Source: a virus
IMG/VR virus record: IMGVR_UViG_3300033508_000321
Length of the DNA: 64,000 bases
Strand: one strand, 5' to 3'
Shown here piece by piece: positions 7,676-63,080 of the stretch. The notes beneath the pieces are model-generated. The model searched no databases. It worked only from the letters and a program-made list of their open reading frames with translations, and was not told the origin of the DNA. Made by a program: the position numbers and the translations under genes. How positions within the stretch are numbered: position 1 is the stretch's first letter; the number at the start of each line of letters is the position of its first letter.

Positions 7676-7778
7676 GAAAAATATTTTTTTGTAAAATTAA
7701 GTGAATTTTAACAAAAATGTATAAAAATTTTGTATCGGGCACGCTAAGAATTTACTTTGTTAAAATTTTGTTATTGAT

Positions 7779-19427: not shown

Positions 19428-19612
19428 CTATTTAAAACTAACCAAAACGAGTAAAAATATTATATAAACCAGTGAAAAAATATGAGAAGCGCACCAACCT
19501 AAAAGTGCTTGGGTTAACTAACCCGATACAAAGGTAAAATTTTTGCGCAAAGGTTTACGTCATTAACAAAATTTTAACATGATGGACTATTGACAAATAC
19601 AAAAATCGGGTT

Positions 19613-19726: not shown

Positions 19727-19740
19727 CTGTTAGGTTTTAG

Positions 19741-23995: not shown

Positions 23996-24053
23996 TTAAC
24001 AAATCAATAACAAAGTAGTTAACAACCCTTTAACAATTGATGATTTAAATTTG
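23996..24053 (+). promoter_or_regulatory. dut promoter: four TTAACAA-type heptamers plus -7 box TAaaTTTG
   Basis: TTAACAA 23996, ATAACAA 24007, TTAACAA 24019, TTAACAA 24030, N9, then TAaaTTTG 24046-24053. Confidence 0.5.
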
Positions 24054-24479: not shown

Positions 24480-24540
24480 AAAAATGGTATTAACAAACAG
24501 TTAACAACAACCAAAGAAAAACATAGATAATTTTACACCT

Positions 24541-25452
24541 ATGAAAAAAGCAGAAACACTTAGGCTCGATAAAACCACATTAGGGTTGCTCAAGAAGATG
24601 CGACCGGAAAGTGGGTTTTTTGTATGCAATGGCAGTTACATCATTGCGGAAAAAATATATGACGGACAATTGTGCCTTATAGGCTTAGCTTATGAAAGTG
24701 ATAAAATGACCATACCCTACGCACTGGTAGAAATGGCTAAAAAGTCACTCGTGCTGTTCTACGGCAGTAATGCGCTGGTGGATGATTTCGCAGTAAACTG
24801 GGATGCATGGGAACCATACGTTGAACCAGATTTCAAACCCAAAGGCGATGTGTGGATAGACGATGAAGTGGTAACAAACCTACAGCTATTGAAAGCGAGC
24901 ACCGGTAGTAAAATGGAAGCTGTACGTGTCTTTGCTGATTTAGCCGGAAACGTTATCTTTGATAACGGCCTTGCATACGTTTCCAGTGGTCATTACGTCC
25001 ATGTACAACACACACCGGTAGAAGAAAAATTTGCAATGCGGTTAGGTGCTATTCAGCACATACCAAACACCGGGTGCTTTTATGGTAAAACCGAAAAAGC
25101 TACGTATTTCTACAACGAAAATATAGCGGTAAAAATTTCGGATATGCCTAACTTGAAACTACCTGAGTACACAGTAGTAAAAGGGTTTTTCGAAAAGGAA
25201 TACGAGAAACTGCTAACCATAGATAAACAAACGGTGGTTAATCATTGTAAAGTAGCTTTGGCGAAAGAACCTGAAAAAAGGCAGCATAATAGCCTTGTGA
25301 TAGAATTAACACTTGAGGATATAACTATAAAAGTACGCCCAAAACAGATTTTGAACCTCTTAGCAGGTGTTTTGGATGACGTGCTTACTCTCGAACATAC
25401 GACAAATTTCTTTTTAATAAACAGTAATATTTTAGTAGCTAAAATCAATTAA
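24541..25452 (+). CDS. Hypothetical replication-module protein
   Basis: 303-aa ORF preceded by a TTAACAA dyad (24490/24501). No motif recognised. Confidence 0.5.
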   Translation: MKKAETLRLDKTTLGLLKKMRPESGFFVCNGSYIIAEKIYDGQLCLIGLAYESDKMTIPYALVEMAKKSLVLFYGSNALVDDFAVNWDAWEPYVEPDFKPKGDVWIDDEVVTNLQLLKASTGSKMEAVRVFADLAGNVIFDNGLAYVSSGHYVHVQHTPVEEKFAMRLGAIQHIPNTGCFYGKTEKATYFYNENIAVKISDMPNLKLPEYTVVKGFFEKEYEKLLTIDKQTVVNHCKVALAKEPEKRQHNSLVIELTLEDITIKVRPKQILNLLAGVLDDVLTLEHTTNFFLINSNILVAKIN

Positions 25453-29798: not shown

Positions 29799-29843
29799 TT
29801 AACAACCAGTTAACAAATCACTAGCTATAAATTTATACTTTTG
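29799..29843 (+). promoter_or_regulatory. TTAACAA-N4-TTAACAA dyad plus -7 box TActTTTG
   Basis: Heptamers at 29799 and 29810, N19, then TActTTTG 29836-29843. ATG at 29892. Confidence 0.5.
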
Positions 29844-29891
29844 TAATGAAGGCACAACGCCGAATTTTTAACCATTTTAATAATAATTTTT

Positions 29892-30569
29892 ATGAAACCA
29901 GTACAAAAAAGTACACAAAACGAACAACCCACTTCATGGGATGATTTACGGAAAAAAGCAGAATCCACAGGCTTTAAAAAACGTGAGGACGAAAACGGAT
30001 TCTCAAAAGAAACCACAAATTTCTACGTTAGTGCGGACGACGGTAAAGCCGAAATTGTATTACTTGACCCCGGCACGTTTCCGCTAACCGTTCGGGTACA
30101 CAACGTGAAAATGAAAAGTAAAAACGGGAAGGAGTATTACCATACCGAAACCTGCCAGAAATCAGAGCAAGATCATTGCACGTTATGTGATGCAAAAAAA
30201 GCGGGAAATGGTGCGATTAGCGATGCATACGATGTATTCGCATTCACAGTGCTCGACCTTCGTGGTAAACGTGCCGAAGACGGAAAATTTGATGGCGAAC
30301 CAACACCCCTAATTTGGATGGCGACCAAAAAAATGCTGATGCAGCTAATCGAATTGAAAGAGCAATACGAAGACCTTAGTGGTTTGGTGCTCGAGGTAAA
30401 GCGCCTGAACAAAGACACCTATGTAACGGTGAAGATGGAGAAAGATCCAAAAAACCCACGTGTTCAACGCATGGTACAGTGGGAAGAAGAACTACCGGTT
30501 GCGCTACCAAATCGTGATTTCCTTTGGGAAGCACAAAGTGATAAGGATCTAGCTTGGTTACTAAAATAG
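29892..30569 (+). CDS. ssDNA-binding protein, T4 gp32-like
   Basis: GKAEIVLLDPG...VHNVKMKSKNGKEYYHTETCQKSEQDHCTLC parallels the gp32 region GQAVIRFLP...NGKWYIETC...CPVC (His/Cys3 zinc site). Confidence 0.6.
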   Translation: MKPVQKSTQNEQPTSWDDLRKKAESTGFKKREDENGFSKETTNFYVSADDGKAEIVLLDPGTFPLTVRVHNVKMKSKNGKEYYHTETCQKSEQDHCTLCDAKKAGNGAISDAYDVFAFTVLDLRGKRAEDGKFDGEPTPLIWMATKKMLMQLIELKEQYEDLSGLVLEVKRLNKDTYVTVKMEKDPKNPRVQRMVQWEEELPVALPNRDFLWEAQSDKDLAWLLK

Positions 30570-30575
30570 TGAGGG

Positions 30576-30598
30576 GCGGGGCTTAACCCCGCTTTTTT
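30576..30598 (+). terminator. Rho-independent terminator
   Basis: GCGGGG-cttaa-CCCCGC followed by TTTTTT. Confidence 0.7.
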
Positions 30599-30601
30599 AT
30601 T

Positions 30602-34270: not shown

Positions 34271-34469
34271 TGTAGTGAGTAAAGATCACGAATTTGAGAT
34301 TAAGTACACCGATGCTGCCAGTTATAAGTTGAACATCTCAGACCTTGAGAAACTAGAGCGCAAATGTAGTATGAACCGTGAGCCGGTCTTTTTGGTGGAA
34401 TTCCGTCAAATTGGTAAGACCTATGCCATAGTAGAATTAGGATATTTAGAAACTCTGGTTAAGTTTTAA
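34140..34469 (+). CDS. Hjc-like PD-(D/E)xK nuclease (putative Holliday junction resolvase), overlapping recA 3' end out of frame
   Basis: ELKLAKRLQGKVTANSGAAKNQNDVVSKDHEFEIKY fits the Hjc-type pattern (SG...D...E-x-K). The SG and D residues are encoded inside the overlap. Confidence 0.5.
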   Translation: MENHWLQAQEKPSRKQSQKQELKLAKRLQGKVTANSGAAKNQNDVVSKDHEFEIKYTDAASYKLNISDLEKLERKCSMNREPVFLVEFRQIGKTYAIVELGYLETLVKF

Positions 34470-34613
34470 CAACTTATTTACAATTTTAGGAAACTTTGTT
34501 AAAAACTTGTTAATTTCTTATAGATTTTAACAAATCATTAACAAAGTTTCCTTTTATAATTTATTGGTGTTTAACAACTTATTAACAAATGCTGCTTTAT
34601 CTTTGTTGTATAA
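34466..34613 (+). repeat. Terminator/promoter module, copy A (of 4)
   Basis: 15-bp inverted repeat AGGAAACTTTGTTAA (34488-34502) / TTAACAAAGTTTCCT (34538-34552) plus TTTTATAATTT. TTAACAA dyad 34571/34582. -7 box TAtcTTTG 34598-34605. Confidence 0.85.
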
Positions 34614-34648
34614 ATTTTTAAACAGAAAACAACTAAAATTTTAAAATC

Positions 34649-35809
34649 ATGACAACAATCAATTTCAACCCAAAACGAACCACTCAGGTTAAAGACGATT
34701 TTCGTTTTTACAAAGTAATAGAATCAGCCTTTGAAATTAAGGCAGAGGAGGTAGCAATACCTTACGAAACGGTGTATTCGAGTCGTACGGGTATGACCAT
34801 GGCAATCAGAGCACGCATCCCCGCCGATGTACGTATAGTAGATTGTGAAACCCAGCGTACGAAATTCAACGACAAAATTTCACTGTCACAAATAGGACGC
34901 AAAGGCACACCAATGATTATCCTACATGAATGGAAAGATAGTCAAACCGTAACCTTTGCAATCAGCGAAGCAAAGTACGGTATATGGAAACAAGCAGAAA
35001 CTGAACTCAATGTTTTCTGTATATACAAGTCCGACAACACAAAGGATCATACATATCAACTTAATGTTCACACTTGTAAGAGGGATAACCTCCGTGAGCT
35101 GCATCGCATAATAAGCCCTATGGCTGGGTTTGACCAGCCAAAAATAGGTGAGGAGTCAATAAGTATATTCAAAAACTTGGTAGTTGACCGCTTCGATGAT
35201 TATTTCATCACATCGAAGGGGTGTGCGTACTACAAGTTTGGCAGGTACAATCCGCTGGTGGAGTTCGATATGCTAATTCCCGGAAATGATTATTGGGAAG
35301 TTGCGAACGAGACAGGAATGGATGAGCGTACGTACAACGTATTGAAGCGCATGCGTACTGAGTTTACGGTGGTTACATATGGTATGCTATATGCCGAAAT
35401 AACCATGACCCACCTTGAAATAGGTGAGGATTTTGCTGTATTTACAAATGGTAAAAAACAGCTATATATCTACGAAGGCAGTACACAGTACTATGAGTAC
35501 GAGGATGAAAAAGGCGAATGCACAGCATCTGAAATGCGTTACAGCTGCCGCAAAAAAGAAATTTTTTACTTGCGTAGCCAGAATGACGCCGCAAGAATTT
35601 TAGAAAAAATAAATAGTATATCAGACGATACCGTTTTTACGGTAACTGATTCGTATCTTGCTGGTAACTGCGCGGTTGGTACCAGCAATTTTATGAAAAA
35701 ATATAATTTAAAAAGCCCCATCAGTATTGGTGACCTAAGGCAGCACCCTCAGTATGTCGAGTTGCTAAGTAACGCTAGATTTCTAGCGGTGCTAGTTGGG
35801 AAAGAGTAG
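34649..35809 (+). CDS. Cassette 1 cargo: 386-aa protein of unknown function
   Basis: Long ORF between module copy A and the GGGGCGAAAGCCCC hairpin. No motif recognised. Confidence 0.6.
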   Translation: MTTINFNPKRTTQVKDDFRFYKVIESAFEIKAEEVAIPYETVYSSRTGMTMAIRARIPADVRIVDCETQRTKFNDKISLSQIGRKGTPMIILHEWKDSQTVTFAISEAKYGIWKQAETELNVFCIYKSDNTKDHTYQLNVHTCKRDNLRELHRIISPMAGFDQPKIGEESISIFKNLVVDRFDDYFITSKGCAYYKFGRYNPLVEFDMLIPGNDYWEVANETGMDERTYNVLKRMRTEFTVVTYGMLYAEITMTHLEIGEDFAVFTNGKKQLYIYEGSTQYYEYEDEKGECTASEMRYSCRKKEIFYLRSQNDAARILEKINSISDDTVFTVTDSYLAGNCAVGTSNFMKKYNLKSPISIGDLRQHPQYVELLSNARFLAVLVGKE

Positions 35810-35817
35810 TAAAAAAC

Positions 35818-35831
35818 GGGGCGAAAGCCCC
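35818..35831 (+). terminator. Cassette 3' hairpin GGGGC-GAAA-GCCCC (copy 1)
   Basis: 5-bp GC stem with a GNRA loop, 9 nt after the stop. Followed by only TTT, so terminator function is uncertain. Confidence 0.4.
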
Positions 35832-37322: not shown

Positions 37323-38992
37323 GAGTATTCGATGCATTAAAAACTGACTGGCTTGGACGTGGTGAAAACTATGTGAAACGTGCAGAATTAACTTTTGATT
37401 TGTTAACGCTTGAACCTTATTCTACTTTCATGTACAAAATACCGGCGGGTGCAGTTAGTTTCGTACAACCGCTCACCACTAAATTTGTCAGCACGATAAA
37501 ACCGGTGACGATAAAGTATAGCGATAAAGGTAGCAGCACTGATGGTAAGCAAATTATAATCAGCACCGAGCCAGAGGCTACTTTAGAACCACAGAAAGCG
37601 TTGGACGTGATGATCGGTCTGGGATGCCGTGAAGTAGCGCACATCATGTATACAACATTTGAGGTGGAGAAAAATGAGGTTTTGCGAGCGATTATAAACA
37701 TTGTAGAGGATGAACGTATAGAGGATCGAATGGTAACAGATTTGCCCGGCGTTTTTCCATTCTTACAGCGTGCAAAAGCGTTCTTTTTTGACAGAATACC
37801 CGATGCGCCTAAAAACGAATTACAAGAGATATTTTTGGCCTTTTTACGCTTAGTACGTTACCCTGCTACACTACCCGAGGAATTAGCTGATAAGTATAAT
37901 GATGTGCTGGAACAGATACTTGAAATCTTGACACCGTACCCGAGCACGTTCGAAGAGGTAAAAATTGCATCGAAAAAAATATACGAACTGTTTCTACAAT
38001 TCATGGACGAGCAAGAAGAACAGCAACAACGGAATGAGCAAGGCGAAAGTGAGGATGTGGAAGAGGGCGAAGGGCAAAGCAGTGGTGAGGAATCTACTGA
38101 GGAAAAAATGCTACGTATGCTGAAAAGTTTGGCGCAAGCATTAGAACCAGAGGTAGAAGGTGAAAAGCCAGAGGATACTCGAATACTACCAACCGAGGGC
38201 ACGTGTGATGTATTTTCGGTAAGGTGGCAAAAACCCGGCGGAATGATAAAAGGTAAACCTGACTTAAGTAGCGTAGCAGCTATCCGCCGTGAATTTCTAC
38301 CGATTGACTATACCAAGAAACACGTGCTACACAATAAAAATAGCGGTAGCTTAGATGATACTGAACTGGTACGAGGCTTTGCCGGTAGTAAGAACATCTA
38401 CGAGGTAACATCATACGGAAAAGCCGATATTTTGAATCTTGTTCTTTTGGTGGATCAATCTGGTAGCATGGATGGTAGCCGAATAGAAATGGCAAGAAAC
38501 GTAGCTATAATCGTGAGGGAAGCAACACGTGGATTTTCATTTATTCGCTTTTTTGCTTATGGTCATTCTACTGAGGATAGTGGTAGACCTACACCTACGG
38601 ACTTAGATATTTTTTGCGAAAAGGGCGTGGATAAATTGGATTCGATACAAGCGAAAAATGCTTGCAATCGTGATGGTAGCGCAATCATGGAGGTTACTGC
38701 TCGAGTACAAGCATTAAGCCCCTACAAAACTGTTATTCTGATGATCAGCGATGGCCAACCGAATGCCTTAGTACCACACGGGTTTACGGATGAAAGTTTT
38801 ATACGTCACGCAGTAAAATTTGCGGAAAAACGGAAAACCAAAATAGCACACATAAGCATGGTAGGTTTATCGTGGAAAAACGTATACGCATACGAGATGG
38901 ATGCAAGCAGTAATTTTACCATGAAAATGGTACTGATGCTTAGACAGGTATTGAAAGATAATTTTGCTCAAAATGTGTTAACAAAACTTTAA
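37319..38992 (+). CDS. von Willebrand factor A (vWA) domain protein, CobT-like
   Basis: Central acidic tract EEQQQRNEQGESEDVEEGEGQSSGEESTEE. MIDAS motif LLVDQSGSMDGSR. Confidence 0.75.
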   Translation: MRVFDALKTDWLGRGENYVKRAELTFDLLTLEPYSTFMYKIPAGAVSFVQPLTTKFVSTIKPVTIKYSDKGSSTDGKQIIISTEPEATLEPQKALDVMIGLGCREVAHIMYTTFEVEKNEVLRAIINIVEDERIEDRMVTDLPGVFPFLQRAKAFFFDRIPDAPKNELQEIFLAFLRLVRYPATLPEELADKYNDVLEQILEILTPYPSTFEEVKIASKKIYELFLQFMDEQEEQQQRNEQGESEDVEEGEGQSSGEESTEEKMLRMLKSLAQALEPEVEGEKPEDTRILPTEGTCDVFSVRWQKPGGMIKGKPDLSSVAAIRREFLPIDYTKKHVLHNKNSGSLDDTELVRGFAGSKNIYEVTSYGKADILNLVLLVDQSGSMDGSRIEMARNVAIIVREATRGFSFIRFFAYGHSTEDSGRPTPTDLDIFCEKGVDKLDSIQAKNACNRDGSAIMEVTARVQALSPYKTVILMISDGQPNALVPHGFTDESFIRHAVKFAEKRKTKIAHISMVGLSWKNVYAYEMDASSNFTMKMVLMLRQVLKDNFAQNVLTKL

Positions 38993-39050
38993 CAAGCGTA
39001 CGGGTAAGTAACTAAGTGAAATACAACTATATTTACAAGAAATAAACAAC

Positions 39051-42234: not shown

Positions 42235-42587
42235 CACTTGACCCAAATAGTACTCTCAGCGATTACTATTCAATGTTTTGTGCTGACGCACAAATTACAA
42301 ATAAGAAAAACACCATGAAAACAATGACTCGGACAGAAAAAAGAAATACTTTATTACTTGCTAAAGTAACAGTAAGCCCACTAACGGTGGAATCAGAGAA
42401 AGCCTTTTTTAAAAGCCGGGTTAAAGAGCAGCATTTAGCTCTTATTGTGACTGATGATAACCTTTGGAAAGGATACCAGAGTTACAACGCTCTGATGAAA
42501 GAATCGGGTGATACCGATTACAAACACCTAACTTCTAAAGAAGTATTAGTACTGAGGGAGGAAATAAAAAAGGAATTTAACTTATGA
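42219..42587 (+). CDS. Hypothetical protein (starts in the conserved 16-nt junction)
   Basis: Starts MRSEI, like paralog starts MSSEV/MRDKI. The body is not obviously paralogous. Confidence 0.5.
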   Translation: MRSEITLDPNSTLSDYYSMFCADAQITNKKNTMKTMTRTEKRNTLLLAKVTVSPLTVESEKAFFKSRVKEQHLALIVTDDNLWKGYQSYNALMKESGDTDYKHLTSKEVLVLREEIKKEFNL

Positions 42588-42967: not shown

Positions 42968-44144
42968 CCAGGCAAAAGCATTTGAAAAGCTAAAAACCCT
43001 TAAAGTAGGTGCACTTTTCATGTCACCGGGTGCGGGTAAAACCCTAACAGCCTTTGAGCTTATTCATAGTGTAGAAGGTATTAACTACGTGTTATGGTTA
43101 ACACCCTTTCAGACGAAAGAAAATTTGCGCAAAGAATTAACAGAGTATGGTGGTTTTGACTTTGCCCATGATGTAGTGGGTATAGAAACACTTTCATCAT
43201 CTGATGCTGTTTATCTGAAATTAAGTAAGAAGATACAAGAGCATAACACATTTATAGTGTGTGATGAAAGCCTGAAAATAAAAAATTTGGCGGCAAAGCG
43301 TACCCAAAGAATCCTAGAACTGAGCAAATTTTGTGAGTACAAACTCATATTGAATGGTACACCGCTAAGCAAGAATGTAATGGATTTATGGGCACAGTTA
43401 CAATTCCTTAGCCCTAAAATACTAAATATGCCTTTGGCTCAGTACAAGAGTGTATTCGTGAAATACACCACCATCACGAAGAAAATAAACGGCTATAAAG
43501 TAACAAGGGAGTTTATCGATGGCTACGCCAATATTGATTACCTGTACTCACTTATTAAACCCTACGTGTACGAGTGTGACCTTACAGTAAATGTAGAAAA
43601 ACATTATGTAGAGTACATTTATGAGGTAGGTGAAGAAGCAAAAGAAGAGTATAACAGGTTAAAAAAGTTCATGTCTGAGCATGAATATTTGCTTTTCAGG
43701 AATAACAACGTATTCTTGGAACTGATACAAAACTTACAAATGGCTTACTGTACAGTACCTGAAAAATTCGAACTCCTGGGGTGGGTGCTTACTCAGGTAG
43801 AACCAAAGAAAACCATTGTTTTTTGTAAATTTATACGTAGTGTTGAATCCATTAGTAAGAAATTTCCATACCTTAAAGTACTGACCTACGGTAAACACGC
43901 ATACGGGTTAAATTTGCAGGAATATAATACGGTTGTATTTTGGGATAAAACCTTTGATTATGCGTTACGATTACAAGCCGAAAGGCGTATCTTTAGAACC
44001 GGGCAAACTGATATTTGTACGTATTATGACCTAACAGCTAGTACGGGTTTGGATAACATGATAAACGGAAATATAGAGCGGAAAGAATCCATGCTCAGTT
44101 ACTTTAAGAAAATAGCATTTAAAACTTTTATTGAAAACTTATGA
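42948..44144 (+). CDS. SNF2-family helicase/ATPase
   Basis: Motif I MSPGAGKT. Motif II VCDESLKIKN. Motif III LILNGTPLSKNVMDLWAQLQFL. Motif VI RIFRTGQT. Confidence 0.75.
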   Translation: MMILLDDQAKAFEKLKTLKVGALFMSPGAGKTLTAFELIHSVEGINYVLWLTPFQTKENLRKELTEYGGFDFAHDVVGIETLSSSDAVYLKLSKKIQEHNTFIVCDESLKIKNLAAKRTQRILELSKFCEYKLILNGTPLSKNVMDLWAQLQFLSPKILNMPLAQYKSVFVKYTTITKKINGYKVTREFIDGYANIDYLYSLIKPYVYECDLTVNVEKHYVEYIYEVGEEAKEEYNRLKKFMSEHEYLLFRNNNVFLELIQNLQMAYCTVPEKFELLGWVLTQVEPKKTIVFCKFIRSVESISKKFPYLKVLTYGKHAYGLNLQEYNTVVFWDKTFDYALRLQAERRIFRTGQTDICTYYDLTASTGLDNMINGNIERKESMLSYFKKIAFKTFIENL

Positions 44145-44689
44145 AAAAAGCAGCGTTTAAAAGCCCTGTGTACAGTGTTGTAGCTGTACCGATTTATAAA
44201 ATTGAGGCAAATAACTACAATCCAAACCACGTTGCAAAGCGTGAAATGGACTTACTCTACCAAAGCATAAAATGTGATGGGTACACTATGCCTATTGTAT
44301 GTTTCTATGATGATGAAAGGGATAAATACATTATCGTGGATGGTTTTCACCGTTATACGATTATGCTCAAATACAAAGATATTTTTGAGCGAGAAAATGG
44401 TATGTTACCGGTATCAGTTATTCACAAAGATCTAAGTGACCGAATGGCTTCAACAATTCGTCATAACAGGGCACGAGGTAAACATGAAGTGGAACTGCAA
44501 GCATCTTTAGTCGGGATGTTAAAATCTGGGTGGGATGAGCTAAAAATAATGAAAGAGCTGGGCATGACCTTAGAAGAAGTACAACGTTTGATAGGTTTAC
44601 GTGGTATAGCAAGTGAGATAAAAGGTGTACCTTATTCAATCGAACGCCAAATAATAGAAGCAGGGGAGGACGTTACTGATGAAGATTAA
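44141..44689 (+). CDS. ParB/Srx-fold N-terminal domain protein (IbrB-like)
   Basis: YNPNHV...IIVDGFHRYT...IRHNRARGKH. ATGA-coupled to the SNF2 gene. Confidence 0.65.
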   Translation: MKKAAFKSPVYSVVAVPIYKIEANNYNPNHVAKREMDLLYQSIKCDGYTMPIVCFYDDERDKYIIVDGFHRYTIMLKYKDIFERENGMLPVSVIHKDLSDRMASTIRHNRARGKHEVELQASLVGMLKSGWDELKIMKELGMTLEEVQRLIGLRGIASEIKGVPYSIERQIIEAGEDVTDED

Positions 44690-45260
44690 ATTTATAGTAA
44701 TGACCAGCGAGGATCCTAAAAGGATTGAAAATGTACAAAAAATGGAAATTCCGGACTTAGTAATTTACAGGGGTGATAACGATGACGTATTTCAAAAGTA
44801 TCTTAATTGTTTTATCCTAGAATCTGAGTATGATGGCGTGCTAGTACTTGAGGATGATGTACAACTTTGCTGGGATTTTTATACTAAAGTGTTAGGTATA
44901 ATTCAAAAATATGCCAGTGATGTGATTAGCTTTTTTGAAAAGCCTAATTCTAGACAGGTACTTGAAAAAGGTTTTAGGCCGGGGCGTGACTTTATGTTCA
45001 ACCAGTGTAATTATTACCCTAAAGCTACATGTGAGTTATTTTTAGGTTCGGAAAACGTAGCTGAGTTTAAAAACTCATATTTCACTAAATACAAAGTTTG
45101 GGTAGCCCCGATCGATATTTACATAGCACACGTGCTAAGTAAATACAAGTTAGAGTACCTTATGTACTTACCTTTTTTGGTGCAGCATTTACCCTTTAAA
45201 TCTATTTTGGGTAACAGGTCTACCAAACGTCAAACCAAATTTTTTATAGATGACCTATGA
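44679..45260 (+). CDS. Glycosyltransferase family 25-like protein
   Basis: MKIKFIVMTSEDPKRIENV... and VLVLEDDVQLCWDF resemble the GT25 N-terminus and EDD motif. Confidence 0.45.
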   Translation: MKIKFIVMTSEDPKRIENVQKMEIPDLVIYRGDNDDVFQKYLNCFILESEYDGVLVLEDDVQLCWDFYTKVLGIIQKYASDVISFFEKPNSRQVLEKGFRPGRDFMFNQCNYYPKATCELFLGSENVAEFKNSYFTKYKVWVAPIDIYIAHVLSKYKLEYLMYLPFLVQHLPFKSILGNRSTKRQTKFFIDDL

Positions 45261-46414
45261 AAAGAACTACAACGCTGGGCACGGAAAACGTGTTGGAATC
45301 TACACTAAAACGTATTGCTTACCTGTTTGATCACTATGATAATATTTCCTTATCATTCTCTGGTGGTAAAGATAGCACTGCTTTGTTTCATTTGGTGAAT
45401 AACGAGGCTGTGAAACGTGATAGGAAATTTATTCTATACTTTCAAGATCAGGAAGCAGAGTATCAGGGTACTATTGACCTAATGGAATGGGCTATGACTA
45501 GGCCAAACGTAATACCACTTTGGTATCAAGTACCGATTTTTATGACCAATGCAGCTAGTCACCAACAACTATTTTTGTGGGCGTGGGGTGAGGGTGAAAA
45601 ATGGGTGCGAGAAAAGCATCCGATGGCCATACAATCTATTGATGGAAAATATCCTAAGCGGTTTTATAAGTTTAACTTGTGGGTAGGTCAGCAACTAAGA
45701 AAATTGCCCGGAAATCATGTATCAATAATCGGATTAAGAGCCGAAGAAAGCCCTGATAGACGTTTTGTGATGTTTGGCGAAGACAGTGATTTGTTTTGGT
45801 TACGTAGAAAAACAGAGCCACATAAAGCATATCCTATTATTGATTGGGCATATACCGATGTGTGGAAGTACCTTATTGAAGGTAGTTACAGGTACAATAA
45901 CGTGTATGATAAGATGTATATGCTAGGTGGTAATTTACGCCAATTCAGGGTTTCAAATTTGGTGCATGAAAAGGCATTCCGGTGTTTAACTGATTTGCAG
46001 GAATTAGAACCTGAAACGTATGATAAGTTAGAAGAACGTTTGCAGGGTGTACATACGGCAGCTATCTATGGCAAAGAAGCCTTGATTTATTCGATAAAAA
46101 CCTTACCGGAAAGTTTTAAAACATGGAAAGAGTACAAGGATTTTCTACTAAGTAGTATACACCCAGACCTGAGCAAATTGTTTCGTTATCAATGGTCACG
46201 TTTTGGTGATACGGACGATGTACGAGCTTGTAAATACATGGTAAAACGTATTCTATTATGCGACTGGGAGGGTAACATCAAAGAACAGGATTGGATGAAA
46301 TACTACCCTGAGTGGACTGTTAATAAATTCAACTACACCAAGGAACAGATACTAGAAAAAAATAGGCAGAAACGTGAAGATCCAGTAATAAATAAATGGA
46401 TGGCCAAGCTGTGA
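45257..46414 (+). CDS. PAPS reductase-family PP-loop ATPase (IbrA/DndC-like)
   Basis: PP-loop SFSGGKDSTALFHLV. C-terminal FRVSNLVHEKAFRCLTDLQELEPETYDKLEERLQGVHTA resembles the IbrA C-terminal extension. Confidence 0.65.
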   Translation: MKRTTTLGTENVLESTLKRIAYLFDHYDNISLSFSGGKDSTALFHLVNNEAVKRDRKFILYFQDQEAEYQGTIDLMEWAMTRPNVIPLWYQVPIFMTNAASHQQLFLWAWGEGEKWVREKHPMAIQSIDGKYPKRFYKFNLWVGQQLRKLPGNHVSIIGLRAEESPDRRFVMFGEDSDLFWLRRKTEPHKAYPIIDWAYTDVWKYLIEGSYRYNNVYDKMYMLGGNLRQFRVSNLVHEKAFRCLTDLQELEPETYDKLEERLQGVHTAAIYGKEALIYSIKTLPESFKTWKEYKDFLLSSIHPDLSKLFRYQWSRFGDTDDVRACKYMVKRILLCDWEGNIKEQDWMKYYPEWTVNKFNYTKEQILEKNRQKREDPVINKWMAKL

Positions 46415-46420
46415 AATGTT

Positions 46421-46448
46421 AAAACGCTGCTTAATTGCAGCGTTTTTT
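46421..46448 (+). terminator. Rho-independent terminator
   Basis: AAAACGCTGC-ttaatt-GCAGCGTTTT followed by TT. Confidence 0.7.
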
Positions 46449-46472
46449 ATTATTTTTGTTAAAATAAATGCA

Positions 46473-46480
46473 TAGATTTG
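46473..46480 (+). promoter_or_regulatory. -7 box TAgaTTTG
   Basis: Exact TAnnTTTG 17 nt before ATG 46498. Confidence 0.5.
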
Positions 46481-46497
46481 TAAAAATTTTACATTTT

Positions 46498-47373
46498 ATG
46501 GACATAAACGAATTAAAAGAACTCATAAAACCCGCTTTTGCAAGCGTCGGTAAACTACCAAAAGAAGAGGCGAAGAACTACGGTAATTACAAATTGATGC
46601 CGGTAGAGATATTGGTGAAAGCGGGTTGGAATTACAAGCAAGAAAACCCGTATACGAGTGATAAACTAAACGCTAATTTAAAGCGTAACGGGCAGGTAGA
46701 AAATATACAAGTACGATTACTTGATACAGGTTACTACGAGGTAGTAAATGGTAACCACCGCTTAGATGAAATCATAAAACTTGGGCGCAAAATGGTGGTG
46801 GTTTATGACCATGGAAAAGTAAGTTTAGCCGAGGCGAAGCGTATTGCCATTGAAACAAACGAAACGAAATTTAAAGCGGAAGAAACGCTTTTGGCGGAAG
46901 CAATCCGAGAACTCGAAGCAGAATTTGGCTTAGAAGACCTAGAGCAAACATTACCATTCTCGGATGAAGAAATGGAAAAAATGATGTCGGAAATGGATTC
47001 TGAGTTTGAGGAACCAACACAGGGTAATTATACACGCAAGATTGAATCGCCTACCTATGAGCCAAAGAATGAAAAACCGCACACCATAGACTTGTACGAC
47101 AAAAGCAAGTATGAGCAACTTTTAGAGGGTATAGAGGGTAGCTCAGCAGATCCAGAGGTTAAGATGTTTCTAAAAATTGCGGCGGCAAGGCACATAGTTT
47201 TTGACTATTCTAAGATAGCCGATTTTTATGCGCACAGCGATGCACAGGTACAACGTTTGATGGAGGATTCAGCACTCGTAATTATAGACTTTAATAGAGC
47301 TATTGAGCTAGGTTTTGTGCAGTTATCGGAGAATATAGCAAAACAATACACAGAGGATTATGGAAAAGCCTAA
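46498..47373 (+). CDS. Second ParB N-terminal domain protein with acidic C-terminal half
   Basis: Start moved to ATG 46498, downstream of the -7 box. YYEVVNGNHRLDEI...IAIETNETKF ParB-like motifs. Confidence 0.65.
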   Translation: MDINELKELIKPAFASVGKLPKEEAKNYGNYKLMPVEILVKAGWNYKQENPYTSDKLNANLKRNGQVENIQVRLLDTGYYEVVNGNHRLDEIIKLGRKMVVVYDHGKVSLAEAKRIAIETNETKFKAEETLLAEAIRELEAEFGLEDLEQTLPFSDEEMEKMMSEMDSEFEEPTQGNYTRKIESPTYEPKNEKPHTIDLYDKSKYEQLLEGIEGSSADPEVKMFLKIAAARHIVFDYSKIADFYAHSDAQVQRLMEDSALVIIDFNRAIELGFVQLSENIAKQYTEDYGKA

Positions 47374-48882: not shown

Positions 48883-48900
48883 AATTTTGTATGCTGATAA

Positions 48901-48946
48901 TTAACAAGCTATTAACAATAAGTAAAAAGTTAATTAACTATTTTTA
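48901..48946 (+). promoter_or_regulatory. TTAACAA dyad plus TAttTTTa box upstream of 48974
   Basis: Heptamers at 48901 and 48912, N20, then TAttTTTa 48939-48946. An exact TAatTTTG also lies at 48882-48889. Confidence 0.45.
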
Positions 48947-50903: not shown

Positions 50904-51280
50904 GCACACGTGCCTACATAGCAAGAAAAATAGATGATGGTTTTGAGTACATCTACTGCCACAATTCCGGTGAAGAAGACATAGCAGTATTGATAGACGA
51001 TTACGGTACTGATGAAAAGGTAAAAGAACTAATATCCCTTGGTGACATTTCATCTTTGGGCTCGAAAGTAATCCCAAACCCAGGAAGACGTCACACATTC
51101 GAACATCCACAAAAAGACGTAACCGTAGCCTATTACCGAGACCGCAACGAAGGCTGGTTACGAGTGAAACCGGGCAGAGTACCAGCGTTACACGAGCTGT
51201 TAGGTATAGCAGAAAGAGGAGGAATAGACTTTGTGTTTACATTTGACAATGGTGTATGGGCTAGTTATGAGATAGTTTAA
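50900..51280 (+). CDS. Hypothetical protein
   Basis: ATGA-coupled 126-aa ORF. Its stop lies inside module copy B. Confidence 0.5.
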   Translation: MSTRAYIARKIDDGFEYIYCHNSGEEDIAVLIDDYGTDEKVKELISLGDISSLGSKVIPNPGRRHTFEHPQKDVTVAYYRDRNEGWLRVKPGRVPALHELLGIAERGGIDFVFTFDNGVWASYEIV

Positions 51281-51424
51281 CAACTTATTTACAAATTGAG
51301 GAAACTTTGTTAAAAACTTGTTAATTTCTTATAGATTTTAACAAATCATTAACAAAGTTTCCTTTTACAATTTTCTGGGTGTTAACAACTTATTAACAAA
51401 TGTTACTTTATCTTTGTTGTATAA
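51277..51424 (+). repeat. Terminator/promoter module, copy B
   Basis: Same architecture as copy A. -7 box TAtcTTTG 51409-51416. Dyad 51382/51393. Confidence 0.85.
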
Positions 51425-51442
51425 ACAAATAAGAAAAACACA

Positions 51443-51766
51443 ATGGAAACTCAATTAGCAATCAGAACCAGACAACAAGAAATAGCTCAAACTATACTGG
51501 AACAACTAGGTGGATTAAATCGTTTAAATGCGATGTTAGGCTTAAAAGACTTGATGGTAAACGGTTATGGCCTCAGTTTCAAAATCAGCGTAAAAGCAGC
51601 CGCAAACTATGTAAACATCACATTAACCAGTGATGGTCTGTACTACGTAGAATTGGGTAAAATTCGTGGCAAATCTTACAACATAGTAGCTAACTTTCAA
51701 GGCGTGTATGCTGACCAATTGAAAAGCATAATCGAAGATACAGCAAAAGTAAGACTATCATTATAA
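51443..51766 (+). CDS. Cassette 2 cargo: 107-aa protein of unknown function
   Basis: ORF between module B and hairpin copy 2. Confidence 0.6.
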   Translation: METQLAIRTRQQEIAQTILEQLGGLNRLNAMLGLKDLMVNGYGLSFKISVKAAANYVNITLTSDGLYYVELGKIRGKSYNIVANFQGVYADQLKSIIEDTAKVRLSL

Positions 51767-51773: not shown

Positions 51774-51787
51774 GGGGCGAAAGCCCC
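51774..51787 (+). terminator. Cassette 3' hairpin GGGGC-GAAA-GCCCC (copy 2)
   Basis: Identical 14-mer, 8 nt after the stop. Confidence 0.4.
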
Positions 51788-55173: not shown

Positions 55174-55992
55174 ATGAAAGTAGAAATTTTAGCAGATTCA
55201 CTGCACCGAGGCCACCGCCTCACCACTTTCCGACTCACGTTTCCTCAAATCATAGTAAAGGAAATGCTTCGGCATAGAATGTTTTCTTTCGCAAGTCTGA
55301 GTATGCGGGCTATTGGCTTAGATAGAAACATAGAAAAAATAAAGGCGGATATGTGGCGACCTTTGAGCTGGTTACCTGAGCACAAAGGTATGTGTACTGA
55401 TGAGGTAATTGAAAACCGGGAAGAACTGGACGAGCTACATAATGAGCTATTCCAAATCACTATGCGATACGTAAGACAGTTGCAGCAAAGAAACGTATCC
55501 CACCAAATCGTTAACCGGTACATAGAACATTTCGGGCAAGTGCAGATGATTGTATCAGCAACCGAATGGGAAAACTTCTACAAGTTACGCAGGGGTAAAC
55601 GTGCTGAGCAGCACATAAAACTTTTGGCGGAAACGATGTACGATGCTCAAAATACGAGTACACCATACACGTCCGATGACCGCTTCTGGCATATGCCATT
55701 CGTTGGTGGTATAGAAGAAAACGTGGCGAAAGTAGCACGTGTTTCGTTTAGTCAAGATAAGGTATTCACACCAGAGGAAAATAAAAACTTGTACAAGAAA
55801 CTTTTAGCAAGCGGTGAAATGTCACCATTTGAACACGTGGCCGTGGCAATGGGTAGCCGTTACTATGATTATTCACGAACCGTTACCGGTGGTTTAGAGC
55901 ATGGATGGGATAAAAATTTCCGTGGTTTTATTTCTCTTCGCACGCTGGTGGAAAACCCTTTGAACGTAGACTACGTGGAAATGGCAGTGTAG
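55174..55992 (+). CDS. thyX: ThyX-like flavin-dependent thymidylate synthase
   Basis: RHRMFSFASLSMRA fits the ThyX signature RHRxxSxxxxSxR(Y), with Ala in place of Tyr. Confidence 0.65.
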   Translation: MKVEILADSLHRGHRLTTFRLTFPQIIVKEMLRHRMFSFASLSMRAIGLDRNIEKIKADMWRPLSWLPEHKGMCTDEVIENREELDELHNELFQITMRYVRQLQQRNVSHQIVNRYIEHFGQVQMIVSATEWENFYKLRRGKRAEQHIKLLAETMYDAQNTSTPYTSDDRFWHMPFVGGIEENVAKVARVSFSQDKVFTPEENKNLYKKLLASGEMSPFEHVAVAMGSRYYDYSRTVTGGLEHGWDKNFRGFISLRTLVENPLNVDYVEMAV

Positions 55993-55994
55993 TT

Positions 55995-56142
55995 TTAACA
56001 ACTTATTTACAATTAAAGGAAACTTTGTTAAAAACTTGTTAATTTCTAATAGATTTTAACAAATCATTAACAAAGTTTCCTTTTATAATTTATTGGTGTT
56101 TAACAACTTATTAACAAATGATGCTTTATCTTTGTTGTATAA
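55995..56142 (+). repeat. Terminator/promoter module, copy C
   Basis: Differs from copy A at about 4 positions by manual alignment. -7 box 56127-56134. Dyad 56100/56111. Confidence 0.85.
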
Positions 56143-56160
56143 ACAAATAAGAAAAACACC

Positions 56161-56487
56161 ATGAGAACTTTAACAAGCAGTTTCACAAGATTAGAGGAAA
56201 ACACACTTTTTTCCGCTGAATTTCAACAAGCATTAACAGAAGTGCAAAATATGGTACTGGGATTAAGCCCAATGAAAGCCGAACAGGGAAAGTTATACGC
56301 AGCGGAAGCAGCCGGGGAACTTTCCGAGTACGAGGTTGACAAGCTGGTAGAAACTACCATAGTTGAGCACAAGAAATTCACGGCAAAGTTCTACAAATTG
56401 GAACTTAACGATGATGACCAAGGGCAGTATTCAGCTACCGAGGGTGCGTTTTTTGCCTCCGGTGTAGCCACACTAACAATATACTAG
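56161..56487 (+). CDS. Cassette 3 cargo: 108-aa protein of unknown function
   Basis: ORF between module C and hairpin copy 3. Confidence 0.6.
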   Translation: MRTLTSSFTRLEENTLFSAEFQQALTEVQNMVLGLSPMKAEQGKLYAAEAAGELSEYEVDKLVETTIVEHKKFTAKFYKLELNDDDQGQYSATEGAFFASGVATLTIY

Positions 56488-56501: not shown

Positions 56502-56515
56502 GGGGCGAAAGCCCC
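56502..56515 (+). terminator. Cassette 3' hairpin GGGGC-GAAA-GCCCC (copy 3)
   Basis: Identical 14-mer, 15 nt after the stop. Confidence 0.4.
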
Positions 56516-61106: not shown

Positions 61107-62678
61107 ATGCTCACTTCACCGCAATATTATTTCACCTCTACCGTACGTCCGATTAACTTATTCATGGCAGGTTATGGCTCAGGAAAAACCCGAAGCATGG
61201 GTGATCTTAGTTTGTATTTCATTTCTAATTTTCCAGAAATTATTGGACTCATTGCCGCAAATACTTTTTCGCAGTTAACACGTTCAACGTTATTCCGGGT
61301 TTATCAGGTATGGGAAGAAAATGGTGTTGGTGAGTACAGCGAAAACAACCCAAAGGGTCAGTACGTAATGGGTAAGATTCCGCCCCGGCATTTTAAGCGT
61401 TCGAAATATCGCTTGGATGATTATTCGAATGTAATAAGTTTCATTAACGGTGCTATAGTTTTCAAAGGTACACTGGAAAATTACAAGGCGTTGGATGGTA
61501 TGGAGGTCGGGTGGGCTATGTTGGATGAAACGAAAGATACGAGAAGCGAAGCATTGGGGGTTATTATTTCCCGACTTCGTCAGCACGGTGTGTATTTGAA
61601 AGAAAATCATATCATGGAACGGGATAAAAAAGCGGGAGATTATAGCCCATTCTCAAAAACCATAACTGACTATCCTATTAACCCTCTGTACGTATTCACC
61701 GCACCGGCAAAAGAACCATGGTTAAATGCGTTTTTCCACATCTCAGACCTAAGACCAGAGGACATTAAGCCCCGCCTTTTTTCACCACCGCATTATTACC
61801 ATCAGGTAACAGACCATCAGCAAATCATGATTGCAAGCACGTACACGAATGAAAAGAACCTGCCGAGTAGTTACATACCTTCGCTTGCTGAAAGCATGGG
61901 AAAAGCGTTCGTAGATATGTTTATTTACAGCTACCCGTTCTCAGCATCGGGTGGTGAGTTCTACAAAGATTTTAACCGTGAAAAACACGTTGGTACGTGT
62001 GAGTACGATCCGGCGTTACCACTTCATATAACATTCGATGAAAACGTAGTACCATACCAACCTGCCGGTGTATGGCAGACGATGGGAAAACGTGTACGCA
62101 AGATTGCAGAAGTACCGATGGAACCACCTAGGAATAATATTTTTGAGCTATGTAAAGAACTGGGTGTAAAATATGGCGGACATAAAGCCGGGGTGTTTAT
62201 CTACGGTGATGCTACGAGCTTAAAACGTGATAGCAAGCAGCGATTAAATGAAAACTTCTTTACCATTGTAAGGCGTGAGCTGTACGAGTGGAAACCGGTG
62301 ATGCGAATACCATTACAGAACCCGGATGTCGTACATCGGGGTAGTTTTGTGAATGCAATTTTGCGGGATAAAATATTCGGCATTGACTTACTCATAGATG
62401 AATCGTGCCGGAAAAGTATCGAAGATTACGAATTTCTCAAAGAGGATAACGAGGGTAAAAAGCGCAAAGAAATGTACACCGATCCATTAACAAAGGTAAG
62501 CTACCAGCGGTGGGGTCACTTCTCGGATGCGGATGATTACTTCTTACTGGAATATTTCAGACATGAATACAACGCATTTTTGAAAAAAGCTAAAAATAAA
62601 AATACCGAAATACAAGAAAGTGAGCAGATGGACAGAATACTTCGCCGGATGCCTACACGTATAAGTAAGAAATTTTAA
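61107..62678 (+). CDS. Terminase large subunit
   Basis: Start moved to ATG 61107, downstream of the -7 box. Walker A GYGSGKTRS. Walker B WAMLDETKD. C-terminal nuclease-sized domain. Confidence 0.8.
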   Translation: MLTSPQYYFTSTVRPINLFMAGYGSGKTRSMGDLSLYFISNFPEIIGLIAANTFSQLTRSTLFRVYQVWEENGVGEYSENNPKGQYVMGKIPPRHFKRSKYRLDDYSNVISFINGAIVFKGTLENYKALDGMEVGWAMLDETKDTRSEALGVIISRLRQHGVYLKENHIMERDKKAGDYSPFSKTITDYPINPLYVFTAPAKEPWLNAFFHISDLRPEDIKPRLFSPPHYYHQVTDHQQIMIASTYTNEKNLPSSYIPSLAESMGKAFVDMFIYSYPFSASGGEFYKDFNREKHVGTCEYDPALPLHITFDENVVPYQPAGVWQTMGKRVRKIAEVPMEPPRNNIFELCKELGVKYGGHKAGVFIYGDATSLKRDSKQRLNENFFTIVRRELYEWKPVMRIPLQNPDVVHRGSFVNAILRDKIFGIDLLIDESCRKSIEDYEFLKEDNEGKKRKEMYTDPLTKVSYQRWGHFSDADDYFLLEYFRHEYNAFLKKAKNKNTEIQESEQMDRILRRMPTRISKKF

Positions 62679-62822
62679 CAGCTTATTTACAATTTTAGGA
62701 AACTTTGTTAAAAACTTGTTAATTTCTTGTAGATTTTAACAAATCATTAACAAAGTTTCCTTTTATAATTTATTGAGTATTAACAACTTATTAACAAATC
62801 ATTTATTGTCTTTGTTGTATAA
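62675..62822 (+). repeat. Terminator/promoter module, copy D (variant -7 box TGtcTTTG)
   Basis: Same palindrome and dyad (62780/62791). The -7 position reads TGtcTTTG at 62807-62814. Confidence 0.8.
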
Positions 62823-62839: not shown

Positions 62840-63061
62840 ATGGAAAACAAAGTAAAAACATTCGGGGAACTTACACAAGGCACTGTTATAAATTATCGTA
62901 ATAACGTGGTAGCGGATGATACCAATTTCGTAGTGCTTCGCCAGTACGAGAATAGATTTGGTAAGTGGACAGAAGTTTTGAACTTAGATACCTACGAAAA
63001 AGATTTTTTTACCCAGCATACAAAAACTCAGAATCTCTGGACAATAGTAAAAGAAAATTAA
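62840..63061 (+). CDS. Cassette 4 cargo: 73-aa protein of unknown function
   Basis: ORF between module D and hairpin copy 4. Confidence 0.55.
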   Translation: MENKVKTFGELTQGTVINYRNNVVADDTNFVVLRQYENRFGKWTEVLNLDTYEKDFFTQHTKTQNLWTIVKEN

Positions 63062-63066: not shown

Positions 63067-63080
63067 GGGGCGAAAGCCCC
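63067..63080 (+). terminator. Cassette 3' hairpin GGGGC-GAAA-GCCCC (copy 4)
   Basis: Identical 14-mer, 6 nt after the stop. Confidence 0.4.

Follow-up and report, generated by a model that had tools for sequence, protein, structure and literature searches.

Four modules at the borders of gene blocks

We describe here a repeated non-coding element in a stretch of 64,000 nucleotides, referred to throughout as the window, from virus record IMGVR_UViG_3300033508_000321. The phage, known from uncultured material, is a lytic-looking myovirus of about 66.3 kb, and its host is probably a member of the Bacteroidota. Four copies of the element, here called modules A to D, lie in direct orientation on the plus strand. 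Each is followed by a different open reading frame (ORF; cargo A to D) and, just past the stop codon of that frame, by one and the same short hairpin, GGGGC-GAAA-GCCCC (Table 1). The modules stand at the borders of functional blocks: replication genes precede module A, genes for DNA metabolism and modification lie between A and B, a block with a methylase and ThyX between B and C, lysis genes with Dam and the large terminase (TerL) between C and D, and morphogenesis genes after D. All genes but one are carried on the plus strand. Contig L001, which is 99% identical, bridges the end of the window to its start and gives a circular map of the size stated above; a contig of 66,454 bp is also on record.

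Self-comparison of the window places the four copies at 34462-34644, 51273-51455, 55991-56173 and 62671-62853. Modules A and C are 97.4% identical, with exactly four differences over a core of 153 nt, and the remaining pairs are 88-92% identical over the same core. Four near-identical direct copies, with about four differences between A and C, is what the original prediction had claimed from the letters alone, and the alignment (88-97% identity overall) bears this out. The same arrangement is seen again in contigs of JGI samples 3300002026, 3300033516 and 3300033514 and of ENA ERZ27248459; its presence in four independent samples rules against an assembly artefact, a reading which we reject. 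Searches for close copies elsewhere, using exact and degenerate patterns against IMG/VR, JGI metagenomes and GTDB genomes, returned only strain-level copies and unrelated contigs.

Table 1. Coordinates of the modules, cargo genes, hairpins, further dyads and gene blocks in the window
Feature	Position	Strand	Remarks
Module A, site 1 (TTAACAA-N4-TTtACAA dyad)	34466..34483	+	Holds the stop TAA (34467-34469) of the upstream ORF
Module A, long hairpin	34488..34552	+	15-bp perfect arms 34488-34502 / 34538-34552; inner 7-bp stem
Module A, dyad site 2	34496-34513	-	In hairpin arm
Module A, dyad site 3	34527-34544	+	In hairpin arm
Module A, T-rich tract TTTTATAATTT	34553..34563	+	Directly 3' of long hairpin
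Module A, site 4 (perfect TTAACAA-CTTA-TTAACAA dyad)	34571..34588	+	27 nt upstream of -7 box; centre near -30
Module A, -7 box TATCTTTG (34598-34605) and start region	34598..34614	+	Predicted start site
Cargo A	34649..35809	+	386-aa ORFan
GNRA hairpin GGGGC-GAAA-GCCCC, 3' of cargo A	35818..35831	+	Followed only by TTT
Module B	51273..51425	+	Same four dyads and hairpin; -7 box TATCTTTG at 51409
Cargo B	51443..51766	+	107 aa, phrog_9437
GNRA hairpin, 3' of cargo B	51774..51787	+	Next ORF 30 nt on (51817)
Module C	55991..56143	+	3' of ThyX gene; identical in strain L031
Cargo C	56161..56487	+	108-aa acidic ORFan, isoelectric point 4.5
GNRA hairpin, 3' of cargo C	56502..56515	+	Next ORF 16 nt on
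Module D	62671..62822	+	3' of large terminase gene; -7 box TGTCTTTG at 62807
Cargo D	62840..63061	+	73-aa ORF; no detectable homologue
GNRA hairpin, 3' of cargo D	63067..63080	+	
Dyad (1 mismatch)	7757..7774	-	Only minus-strand dyad; upstream of the sole sizeable minus-strand ORF, 7160-7675
Dyad	19563..19580	+	Upstream of -7 box 19613 and tRNA-Met gene
Two tandem dyads (23996, 24019)	23996..24036	+	Upstream of -7 box 24046 and dUTPase gene
Dyad	24490..24507	+	Upstream of ORF 24541-25452
Dyad	29799..29816	+	Upstream of -7 box 29836 (TACTTTTG) and ORF 29892-30569
Dyad	38978..38995	+	Upstream of Cas4-like exonuclease gene (39051)
Dyad	48901..48918	+	Complex intergenic region 3' of TerS-like gene
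Structural block, myovirus-type	1-19.4 kb		MuF-like protein, protease, sheath, tape measure (PHROG and Pfam)
tRNA-Met gene	After structural block, before replication block
Replication block	Ends at module A		Helicases, DnaB-like helicase, primase, family-A polymerase, UvsX-like recombinase, resolvase-like ORF
DNA metabolism and modification genes	Between modules A and B		Include TerS-like gene 48220-48714
Methyltransferase and other genes up to ThyX	After module B
Lysozyme-like gene, Dam gene, TerL	Between modules C and D
Head genes	After module D

Anatomy of the modules

Each module contains four dyads, that is, pairs of heptamers of the form TTAACAA-N4-TTAACAA; sites 1, 3 and 4 point forward and site 2 is reversed. 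The module was said to begin on the stop codon of the upstream gene in three of four cases, and indeed the first TTAACA box of A, B and D includes the TAA stop, while the TAG stop upstream of module C ends 2 nt before that box. The ORF upstream of module A is Holliday-junction-resolvase-like (PHROG match). The arms of the long hairpin, AGGAAACTTTGTTAA and TTAACAAAGTTTCCT, are perfectly complementary over 15 bp in 4/4 modules, in keeping with the earlier description. From the base upward the hairpin consists of the 15-bp stem, a 4x4 internal loop, a 7-bp stem and a loop of 13 nt, with sites 2 and 3 forming the arms. As RNA it folds with a free energy of -26.9 kcal/mol (z -6.6) and is followed by UUUUAUAAUUU; it is invariant across the copies save for two positions in the apical loop. 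Hairpin and T-rich tract together are terminator-like, and would act on transcription arriving from upstream. Sites 3 and 4 are 44 bp apart, which is exactly four periods of 11 bp.

Bacteroidota sigma-A promoters have TAnnTTTG as their -7 consensus. A dyad followed by such a box had been described for the modules, and both are present; there are, however, four dyads per module and not one, and module D deviates in having a degenerate -7 box (TGTCTTTG) and TTAACAG as its first box. The degenerate box suggests that module D may not fire in this strain. Overall, the fold, the U-rich tract and the -7 box lend support to the proposal that each module is a composite of a terminator-like hairpin and a Bacteroidota-type promoter. 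Similarity of module A to the other copies stops at the start region (34598..34614); among B, C and D it extends across the leader into the first codons.

The alignment of the modules has 23 variable columns, all of them in spacers, in the apical loop or at the last base. The boxes, both stems, the T-tract and the -7/start region are unchanged except for two substitutions in D. Such a distribution is better explained by selection, or by gene conversion, acting on defined functional parts than by recent neutral duplication. We also considered whether the 15-bp inverted repeat marks a miniature inverted-repeat transposable element, a reading rejected on the grounds that homology runs well past both arms and that no target-site duplication is present. 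Among known RNA families, a search of Rfam at the gathering threshold found tRNA only.

A short hairpin behind each first gene

The 14-mer GGGGCGAAAGCCCC was predicted to follow each cargo stop codon closely and to occur nowhere else, and this holds: there are exactly four occurrences in the window, all on the plus strand (starts 35818, 51774, 56502 and 63067), at 8, 7, 14 and 5 nt after the stops of cargo A, B, C and D. No further copy was found in the window even at one mismatch, and none is expected in shuffled sequence. With a 5-bp G+C stem, a GAAA loop and a free energy of -11.4 kcal/mol, the hairpin has the stem-loop of an intrinsic terminator. It lacks the U-run, the tails after the four copies being UUU, UAC, UUU and UUA. 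Consistent with this, a consensus terminator scanner accepts the site on the minus strand only. Other terminators in the genome (near 19395, 30573 and 46421) have different stems and runs of T5-6.

No -7 box is found between the hairpin and the next ORF at any of the four cassettes. The next genes, having no promoter of their own, would be reached by read-through. These results speak against two parts of the original prediction, namely that the hairpin closes each cassette and that each cassette is a discrete, single-gene unit: since the coding strand shows no T-tract after the hairpin, and the next ORFs lie 16-30 nt on without a promoter, the four units appear to be the first genes of longer operons and not monocistronic cassettes. 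Judged by its sequence, the 3' hairpin is no classical terminator. It is more likely a partial terminator or a 3' mRNA stabiliser, which would raise expression of the first gene over that of the rest of the operon.

Cargo genes

The four cargo proteins (386, 107, 108 and 73 aa for A to D) share no similarity with one another by blastp, as the first reading had it. Cargo A has no homologue but itself among 5.8 billion proteins and no Pfam, PHROG or PDB match, and its single-sequence AlphaFold2 model (predicted local distance difference test, pLDDT, 33) is unusable. Cargo B belongs to phrog_9437, a family of small proteins of unknown function present in about 50 very diverse phages. Its AlphaFold2 model is moderate (pLDDT 73), with Foldseek matches only to uncharacterised phage proteins, and its homologue from a marine phage is encoded in a tight operon that lacks module and hairpin flanks. 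For cargo C, an exhaustive HMMER search of 1.84 billion representatives returned only its own strain variant, in contig L031. The two differ by 9 synonymous and 8 non-synonymous substitutions, consistent with a real gene under moderate constraint. Cargo D has no homologue among isolated phages. Sequence searches of the PDB with cargo A, B and C gave no match, and neither structure nor homology searches gave a function for any of the cargo. G+C content ranges from 0.35 to 0.43, against a gene mean of 0.403 (standard deviation 0.023), and only D reaches about -2.4 standard deviations. An anti-defence role for these genes is a guess.

A wider class of predicted dyad promoters

Dyads are not confined to the modules, a point missed in the original prediction. 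At up to two mismatches the window holds 30 matches, against 3.1 expected. Outside the modules there are eight dyads with at most one mismatch, all intergenic and all co-oriented with the gene behind them (Table 1). This distribution implies that the modules are amplified members of a genome-wide promoter class. At six promoters the distance from the start of the dyad to a TAnnTTT(G/A) box is 27, 27, 37, 38, 50 and 50 nt, which suggests, in a small sample, that the dyad is helically phased relative to the -7 box in steps of about one turn. The second dyad in front of the dUTPase gene (24019) has the 27-nt offset seen in the modules. Boxes of the form TAnnTTTG are themselves 4-5-fold enriched in intergenic DNA, with 14/54 falling in 5.8% of the sequence. 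No TAnnTTTG promoter of this phage has a canonical -33 TTTG, which weakens the idea that the dyad replaces a -33 element.

A fifth unit (29799-30601) has the same layout built of non-homologous parts: a dyad promoter, a single ORF and a terminator. The ORF, of 225 aa (phrog_17226, function unknown), lies between the primase and DNA polymerase genes. The terminator, at ~30573-30597, reads GGGGCGGGGC-TTAA-CCCCGC plus T6 (free energy -18.3), and the next ATG follows 4 nt beyond it; the polymerase operon thus seems to need read-through of a strong terminator. Read-through of hairpins within operons seems to be a general trait of this phage.

Three other dyad loci have features of their own. A stand-alone tRNA-Met (CAT) gene at 19630-19701 (window 19381-19928) comes with a dyad and -7 promoter and a terminator of its own; it stands after the terminator at the end of the structural block (~19395) and before the replication genes. 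Further along, a protein resembling the small terminase (TerS), with a helix-turn-helix (HTH), is encoded at 48220-48714 (phrog_309, E = 1e-33), 12 kb from TerL. The 259-bp intergenic region on its 3' side (window 48220-48973) contains several TTAACAA boxes, together with a second hairpin-plus-promoter composite (48846-48889), in which a 13-pair stem (48846-48878) is followed by a T-run that overlaps the -7 box TAATTTTG. On the minus strand, the single dyad faces an ORF of 171 aa inside the head-gene block. This ORF (7160-7675) has no Pfam, PHROG or PDB match, and could encode a regulator, possibly of the dyad class itself.

Arrays of TTAACAA boxes also occur in contigs that share no proteins with the window. 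These generic arrays were dropped as evidence, and are recorded here as observations only. In L008, L016 and L019, which represent the same element from an unrelated phage, three dyads in alternating orientation (L008 3954-4300) adjoin tandem repeats of ~30 nt (ACATTATACAAACATTATATATATAAACTAGAAAA...); this array has the look of an origin or of iterons. Two phage contigs of low GC (L003 425-470 and L005 3366-3422) have three to four TTAACA(A) boxes with an 11-bp period immediately before a TAnnTTTG box; the genes on either side, both conserved, encode a primase-helicase and a 141-aa protein. These boxes could be iterons or a shared type of promoter.

Strain variants and relatives

Two strain contigs differ from the window at a module or at the edge of a cassette. 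Within module D of L001 (L001 6976-7095), an in-register deletion of 44 bp between TTAACAA sites 3 and 4 removes the 3' arm of the hairpin. The spacer and -7 box of this copy are identical to those of module C, and the leader and ATG of cargo D are lost, with the remainder of the gene identical. A misassembly induced by the repeats is conceivable in principle, but the right flank enters cargo D with unique differences, unlike a simple chimera. Module D appears to be decaying, or to be undergoing remodelling, differently in different strains. L031 shows no difference from the window over 987 nt of ThyX and module C, and divergence of 7-12% starts inside cargo C. This strain lacks a segment of 818 bp (window 56490-57307 vs L031 1657-1660) that comprises hairpin C and a 250-aa ORF (56532-57284) and is bracketed by TAGTCA(C/G) direct repeats. 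That ORF, an ORFan, has an Arg-rich N-terminus, SRAHRRNRQSR. In L031 the stop codon of cargo C abuts the -7 box (TATATTTG) of the lysozyme-like gene. L001, then, shows recombination within or between modules, and L031 an indel at a cassette edge.

In every strain contig the four cargo genes are the same and occupy the same places, and no genome compared has different cargo between the same flanks. A difference in cargo between relatives, which the original prediction proposed to look for, was thus not found. At the position of cassette D, more distant relatives do differ. In L026, L029 and L030 the gp36-like and portal genes come straight after TerL, with no small gene between, and other small inserts follow TerL in L027 and L028; cassette D therefore occupies a plastic junction. 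L027 (TerL 49% identical, GC 33%) has a module of its own: seven copies of a promoter-leader element of 45-116 nt, within 1858-15345, on the plan TTTTATTTTG ... TAnnTTTG ... leader ... ATG, with one copy directly after TerL. Multi-copy promoter modules would thus be a habit of the lineage. The same contig contains, at 6688-7422, ~34 tandem copies of a 15-nt unit within a 352-aa ORF, which implies a pentapeptide-repeat protein.

Genome context

By TerL, the nearest isolated phages are Flavobacterium phages (30-43% identity); metagenomic relatives reach at most 52%. Relatives of this phage carry Mu-type portal and F genes. At the DNA level, neither a 7.9-kb query nor the module gave a blastn match to any GenBank phage. 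Genes for DNA modification are dense at 44141-48223 and 51980-58394, where two ParB-like proteins, a PAPS-reductase-like protein, a glucosyltransferase-like protein (TAGT domain), a large methyltransferase and a Dam methylase are encoded. This gene set suggests that the phage DNA is hypermodified. An A-rich translation-start context, ACAAATAAGAAAAACAYCATGAAAA, is common to five genes (window 42297-42322, 59192-59217 and the leaders of B, C and D), suggesting that the true start codons of the genes with this context at 42315 and 59210 lie downstream of the longest-ORF starts.

Discussion

On the reading that we consider the most probable, if by no means secure, the modules are composite terminator/operator/promoter junctions belonging to a dyad-marked class of promoters, and an attenuator or stabiliser hairpin marks off the mRNA of the first gene. 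The long AU-rich hairpin and U-rich tract would stop transcription from the preceding gene block. A promoter made up of the host-type -7 box (TAnnTTTG), preceded by the TTAACAA-N4-TTAACAA direct repeats, would then start transcription anew. A sequence-specific DNA-binding protein, of phage or host, would sit on the repeats at about -30, and in the modules would bind three further sites, two of them hairpin arms. From the start site, a short A-rich leader would run up to the first ORF. Behind that ORF, the GGGGC-GAAA-GCCCC hairpin, as a partial terminator or 3' stabiliser, would keep the first gene well above the later, read-through genes. The modules would be amplified, concertedly evolving members of the dyad class, which would also drive the tRNA-Met, dUTPase and Cas4-like exonuclease genes and other genes of DNA metabolism.

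Several points weigh against this reading. What was directly observed are the sequences, their copy number, fold and placement, and the strain variants; promoter activity, termination, attenuation and protein binding are deduced from these. Helical phasing rests on six promoters, two of whose boxes end in A and not in G, and the -7 box of module D is degenerate. Conservation of the long hairpin could stem from the binding of a protein to duplex DNA, there being no covariation to separate this from RNA structure. The identity of the four 14-mers is only weakly informative, since the stems are constrained and just two loop positions are free. Finally, the dyad could not be matched with any DNA-binding protein. 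In ~75 ORFs, scans with Pfam or PHROG yielded only the TerS-like HTH protein, and no MotA, AsiA, Trans_reg_C or other regulator domain.

It is possible, though we lean against it, that the modules are portable cassettes resembling the promoter-early stem-loop (PeSL) elements of T4-type phages, with module and hairpin serving as recombination substrates through which ORFans are inserted, lost or swapped, and with cargo consisting of host-takeover or anti-defence genes. Such cassettes could co-exist with the composite junctions favoured above. The association of terminator, promoter and ORFan is what defines a PeSL (PMC2839356), and much of the cargo fits: A and C are ORFans, D is without a homologue in isolated phages, and B comes from a promiscuous family of small phage proteins. 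The similarity of B, C and D through the leader into the first codons, the L001 variant (the 44-bp deletion, the patch of module C sequence and the loss of the cargo D leader and ATG), the TAGTCA-bracketed 818-bp segment missing from L031 and the lack of a small gene after TerL in three relatives can all be read in this way. Against this stand the uniform cargo of the strain contigs and the absence of any genome with other cargo between the same flanks. The one recombination breakpoint mapped in a strain, that of L031, falls inside cargo C and not at the module edge, and the indel parts the hairpin from cargo C, which means that the hairpin is no obligate right end. The marine homologue of cargo B does without the flanks, a 14-bp hairpin is very short for homologous recombination, and there are only four copies, compared with dozens of PeSLs per T4-type genome. 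Cargo GC stays within about 2 standard deviations of that of the genome, and no cargo function could be inferred. The portable cassette of the original prediction is thus plausible but unproven: recombination in L001, the indel in L031 and the absence of D from relatives agree with it, whereas no swap of cargo was found. We regard as unlikely the proposal that the dyads are operators at which a repressor would silence or shut off a set of promoters, comparable to the dispersed, asymmetric C1 operators of phage P1 or the 'stoperators' of mycobacteriophage L5, with the four-site modules as high-affinity looping or roadblock sites. The sites are indeed many, asymmetric, dispersed between genes and in one orientation; the core promoter region overlaps with site 4, sites 2 and 3 are inverted relative to each other, the 44 bp (four turns) between sites 3 and 4 would suit cooperative binding, and ParB-like genes are present. 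However, the ORFs scanned include no integrase, repressor-like HTH or lysogeny module, and no prophage copy was found among 185,579 species genomes (one genome per species). The gene content (DNA polymerase, primase, helicases, UvsX) is that of a lytic, replication-proficient phage, and sites that range from ~-30 to ~-53 in helical register are more typical of activators.

Two further proposals concern single parts of the cassette, and we find both improbable, the latter even more so. The GGGGC-GAAA-GCCCC hairpin might be a boxB-like RNA site that loads an antitermination factor for terminators downstream, as nutR does after cro. Its G+C stem and GNRA loop, identical at four operon-proximal positions, would suit such a role; downstream genes depend on read-through, and the strong canonical terminator that stands 4 nt ahead of a gene upstream of DNA polymerase means that terminator read-through is needed somewhere. 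The Arg-rich N-terminus encoded right after hairpin C would also fit. Yet no boxA-like or other conserved flank was found, L031 does without both hairpin C and the Arg-rich ORF, and the strongest terminator, that of the fifth unit, is not preceded by such a hairpin. The loop, moreover, is a tetraloop and not the pentaloop of lambda, and no N-like protein was identified. Alternatively, the modules could be replication origins or packaging (pac) sites, with the 11-bp-phased TTAACAA repeats as iterons for an initiator or for the small terminase. Direct repeats of 11 bp are typical of iterons, similar arrays in unrelated contigs adjoin a primase-helicase gene (L005) or tandem repeats (L008, L016, L019), and the TerS-like HTH gene lies just upstream of a dyad-rich intergenic region. 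Those contigs, however, share no proteins with this phage. Each of the twelve dyad loci has a fixed, helically phased spacing to the -7 box downstream of it and is co-oriented with the gene behind, and a 66-kb genome with four near-identical origins or pac sites would be without precedent.

To our knowledge, the transcription signals of Bacteroidota phages are poorly charted. The architecture of this genome is clear: a class of promoters with phased TTAACAA repeats, terminator-promoter junctions that divide the blocks, and a hairpin that apparently sets the ratio of first-gene to operon expression. If the modules are also sites of recombination, the PeSL principle of regulatory cassettes that drive the turnover of ORFans would extend beyond T4-type phages, and the four cargo genes would be flagged as likely highly expressed accessory genes. 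A bolder version, to which we give little credence for now, is that the modules are the Bacteroidota-phage counterpart of PeSLs: a recombination-active landing pad where ORFans become trapped between the common module and the common hairpin, under one regulator acting on phased TTAACAA repeats, with the hairpin perhaps a control point for a specific RNA-protein interaction and not a passive structure. If true, the phage, from a group that has had little study, would possess a built-in, co-regulated expression platform for fast-evolving accessory, possibly anti-defence, genes. The predicted strong promoter, insulating terminator and attenuator hairpin could in addition serve as genetic tools for Bacteroidota, where parts are scarce.

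Comparison with known systems

At the middle promoters of T4 that depend on MotA, and at the Pho boxes bound by PhoB, upstream boxes take the place of the -35 element; the Pho box is made of 7-bp direct repeats with an 11-bp period. The dyad promoters likewise combine a host-type downstream element with an upstream box centred near -30, in the form of an orientation-dependent 7-N4-7 direct repeat, and their boxes are spread across DNA-metabolism genes. The offset of 27 nt is found in modules A-C and at 24019, and the other dyads lie one or two turns further upstream; in module D the dyad has the same position as in A-C, in front of a degenerate -7 box. The systems differ in that no homologue of MotA, AsiA or PhoB was found here among the ~75 ORFs scanned, in that there is no canonical -33 element which the dyad would visibly replace, and in that the modules add three sites.

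The nut site of lambda, with its boxB, is a small G+C stem with a GNRA-type loop, promoter-proximal and placed after the first small gene, and distal genes need read-through. The hairpin described here is likewise a small G+C stem with a GNRA loop in a promoter-proximal position. It differs from the lambda site in having a tetraloop and not a pentaloop, in lacking a boxA, with only an A-rich run shared among the copies, and in being dispensable at one position, in L031. No N-like protein was identified; the ORF at 56532-57284 has the Arg-rich N-terminus that an antiterminator might have, and is missing from L031 and without homology to N proteins.

Archaeal virus HF2, a halovirus, provides another case of multi-copy, highly similar intergenic repeats that serve as promoters; these are of 29 and 58 bp (PMC8707807). 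The abstract mentions no terminator half, dyad array or 3' hairpin for the HF2 repeats (PMC8707807).

Morons, described for lambdoid phages, are single genes with their own promoter and a downstream hairpin, located between genes that are adjacent in relatives (PMC2839356, Discussion). Cassette D is of this kind, lying between TerL and the gp36-like and portal genes, which adjoin in L026, L029 and L030; for A-C there are no informative relatives. In composition the cargo does not stand out as morons do, its GC being close to that of the genome. Classical morons have unrelated regulatory flanks and are typically expressed from the prophage, whereas the four units here share their flanks, and lysogeny is not indicated. 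The 3' hairpin, too, is a poor terminator.

PeSLs were named in the original prediction as the closest described analogue, and comparison with the published definition upholds this choice (Arbiol et al. 2010, PMC2839356; Comeau et al. 2014, PMC4122927). A PeSL consists of a stem-loop terminator or attenuator and a strong early promoter, conserved over about 100 bp and located beside ORFans, and recombination between PeSLs yields indels and mini-circles (PMC2839356; PMC4122927). Mini-circles and exchange of cargo belong to the PeSLs; among the modules, copy D of L001 has the 44-bp in-register deletion and the patch resembling module C, and no replacement of cargo was seen. PeSLs occur in T4-like myoviruses, with sigma-70 promoters; the present lineage has Mu-like head genes and a Bacteroidota-type promoter. 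The stem of a PeSL is polyG/polyC, and that of the modules is AU-rich and derived from repeats of the protein-binding type. PeSLs are clustered in hyperplastic regions, while the four modules stand at block borders, and for these, ORFans are present and plasticity is seen in two strain variants only. Four phased TTAACAA dyads embedded in the module, and the extra, identical GNRA hairpin after the first gene, are further distinctions. As for the host-sigma promoter, TATCTTTG fits the Bacteroidota -7 element in A, B and C, the box of D is degenerate and there is no -33 TTTG; the dyads suggest that the module promoters depend on a factor. The likenesses lie in the plan. By fold and sequence, a stem-loop is placed directly upstream of a predicted host-type promoter, in a single intergenic motif that reaches up to the start codon, and in both systems ~100 bp or more are conserved, several copies occur per genome, ORFans are associated and there are signs of recombination between copies. 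Judged by these features, the modules resemble PeSLs in layout and stand outside the PeSL family.

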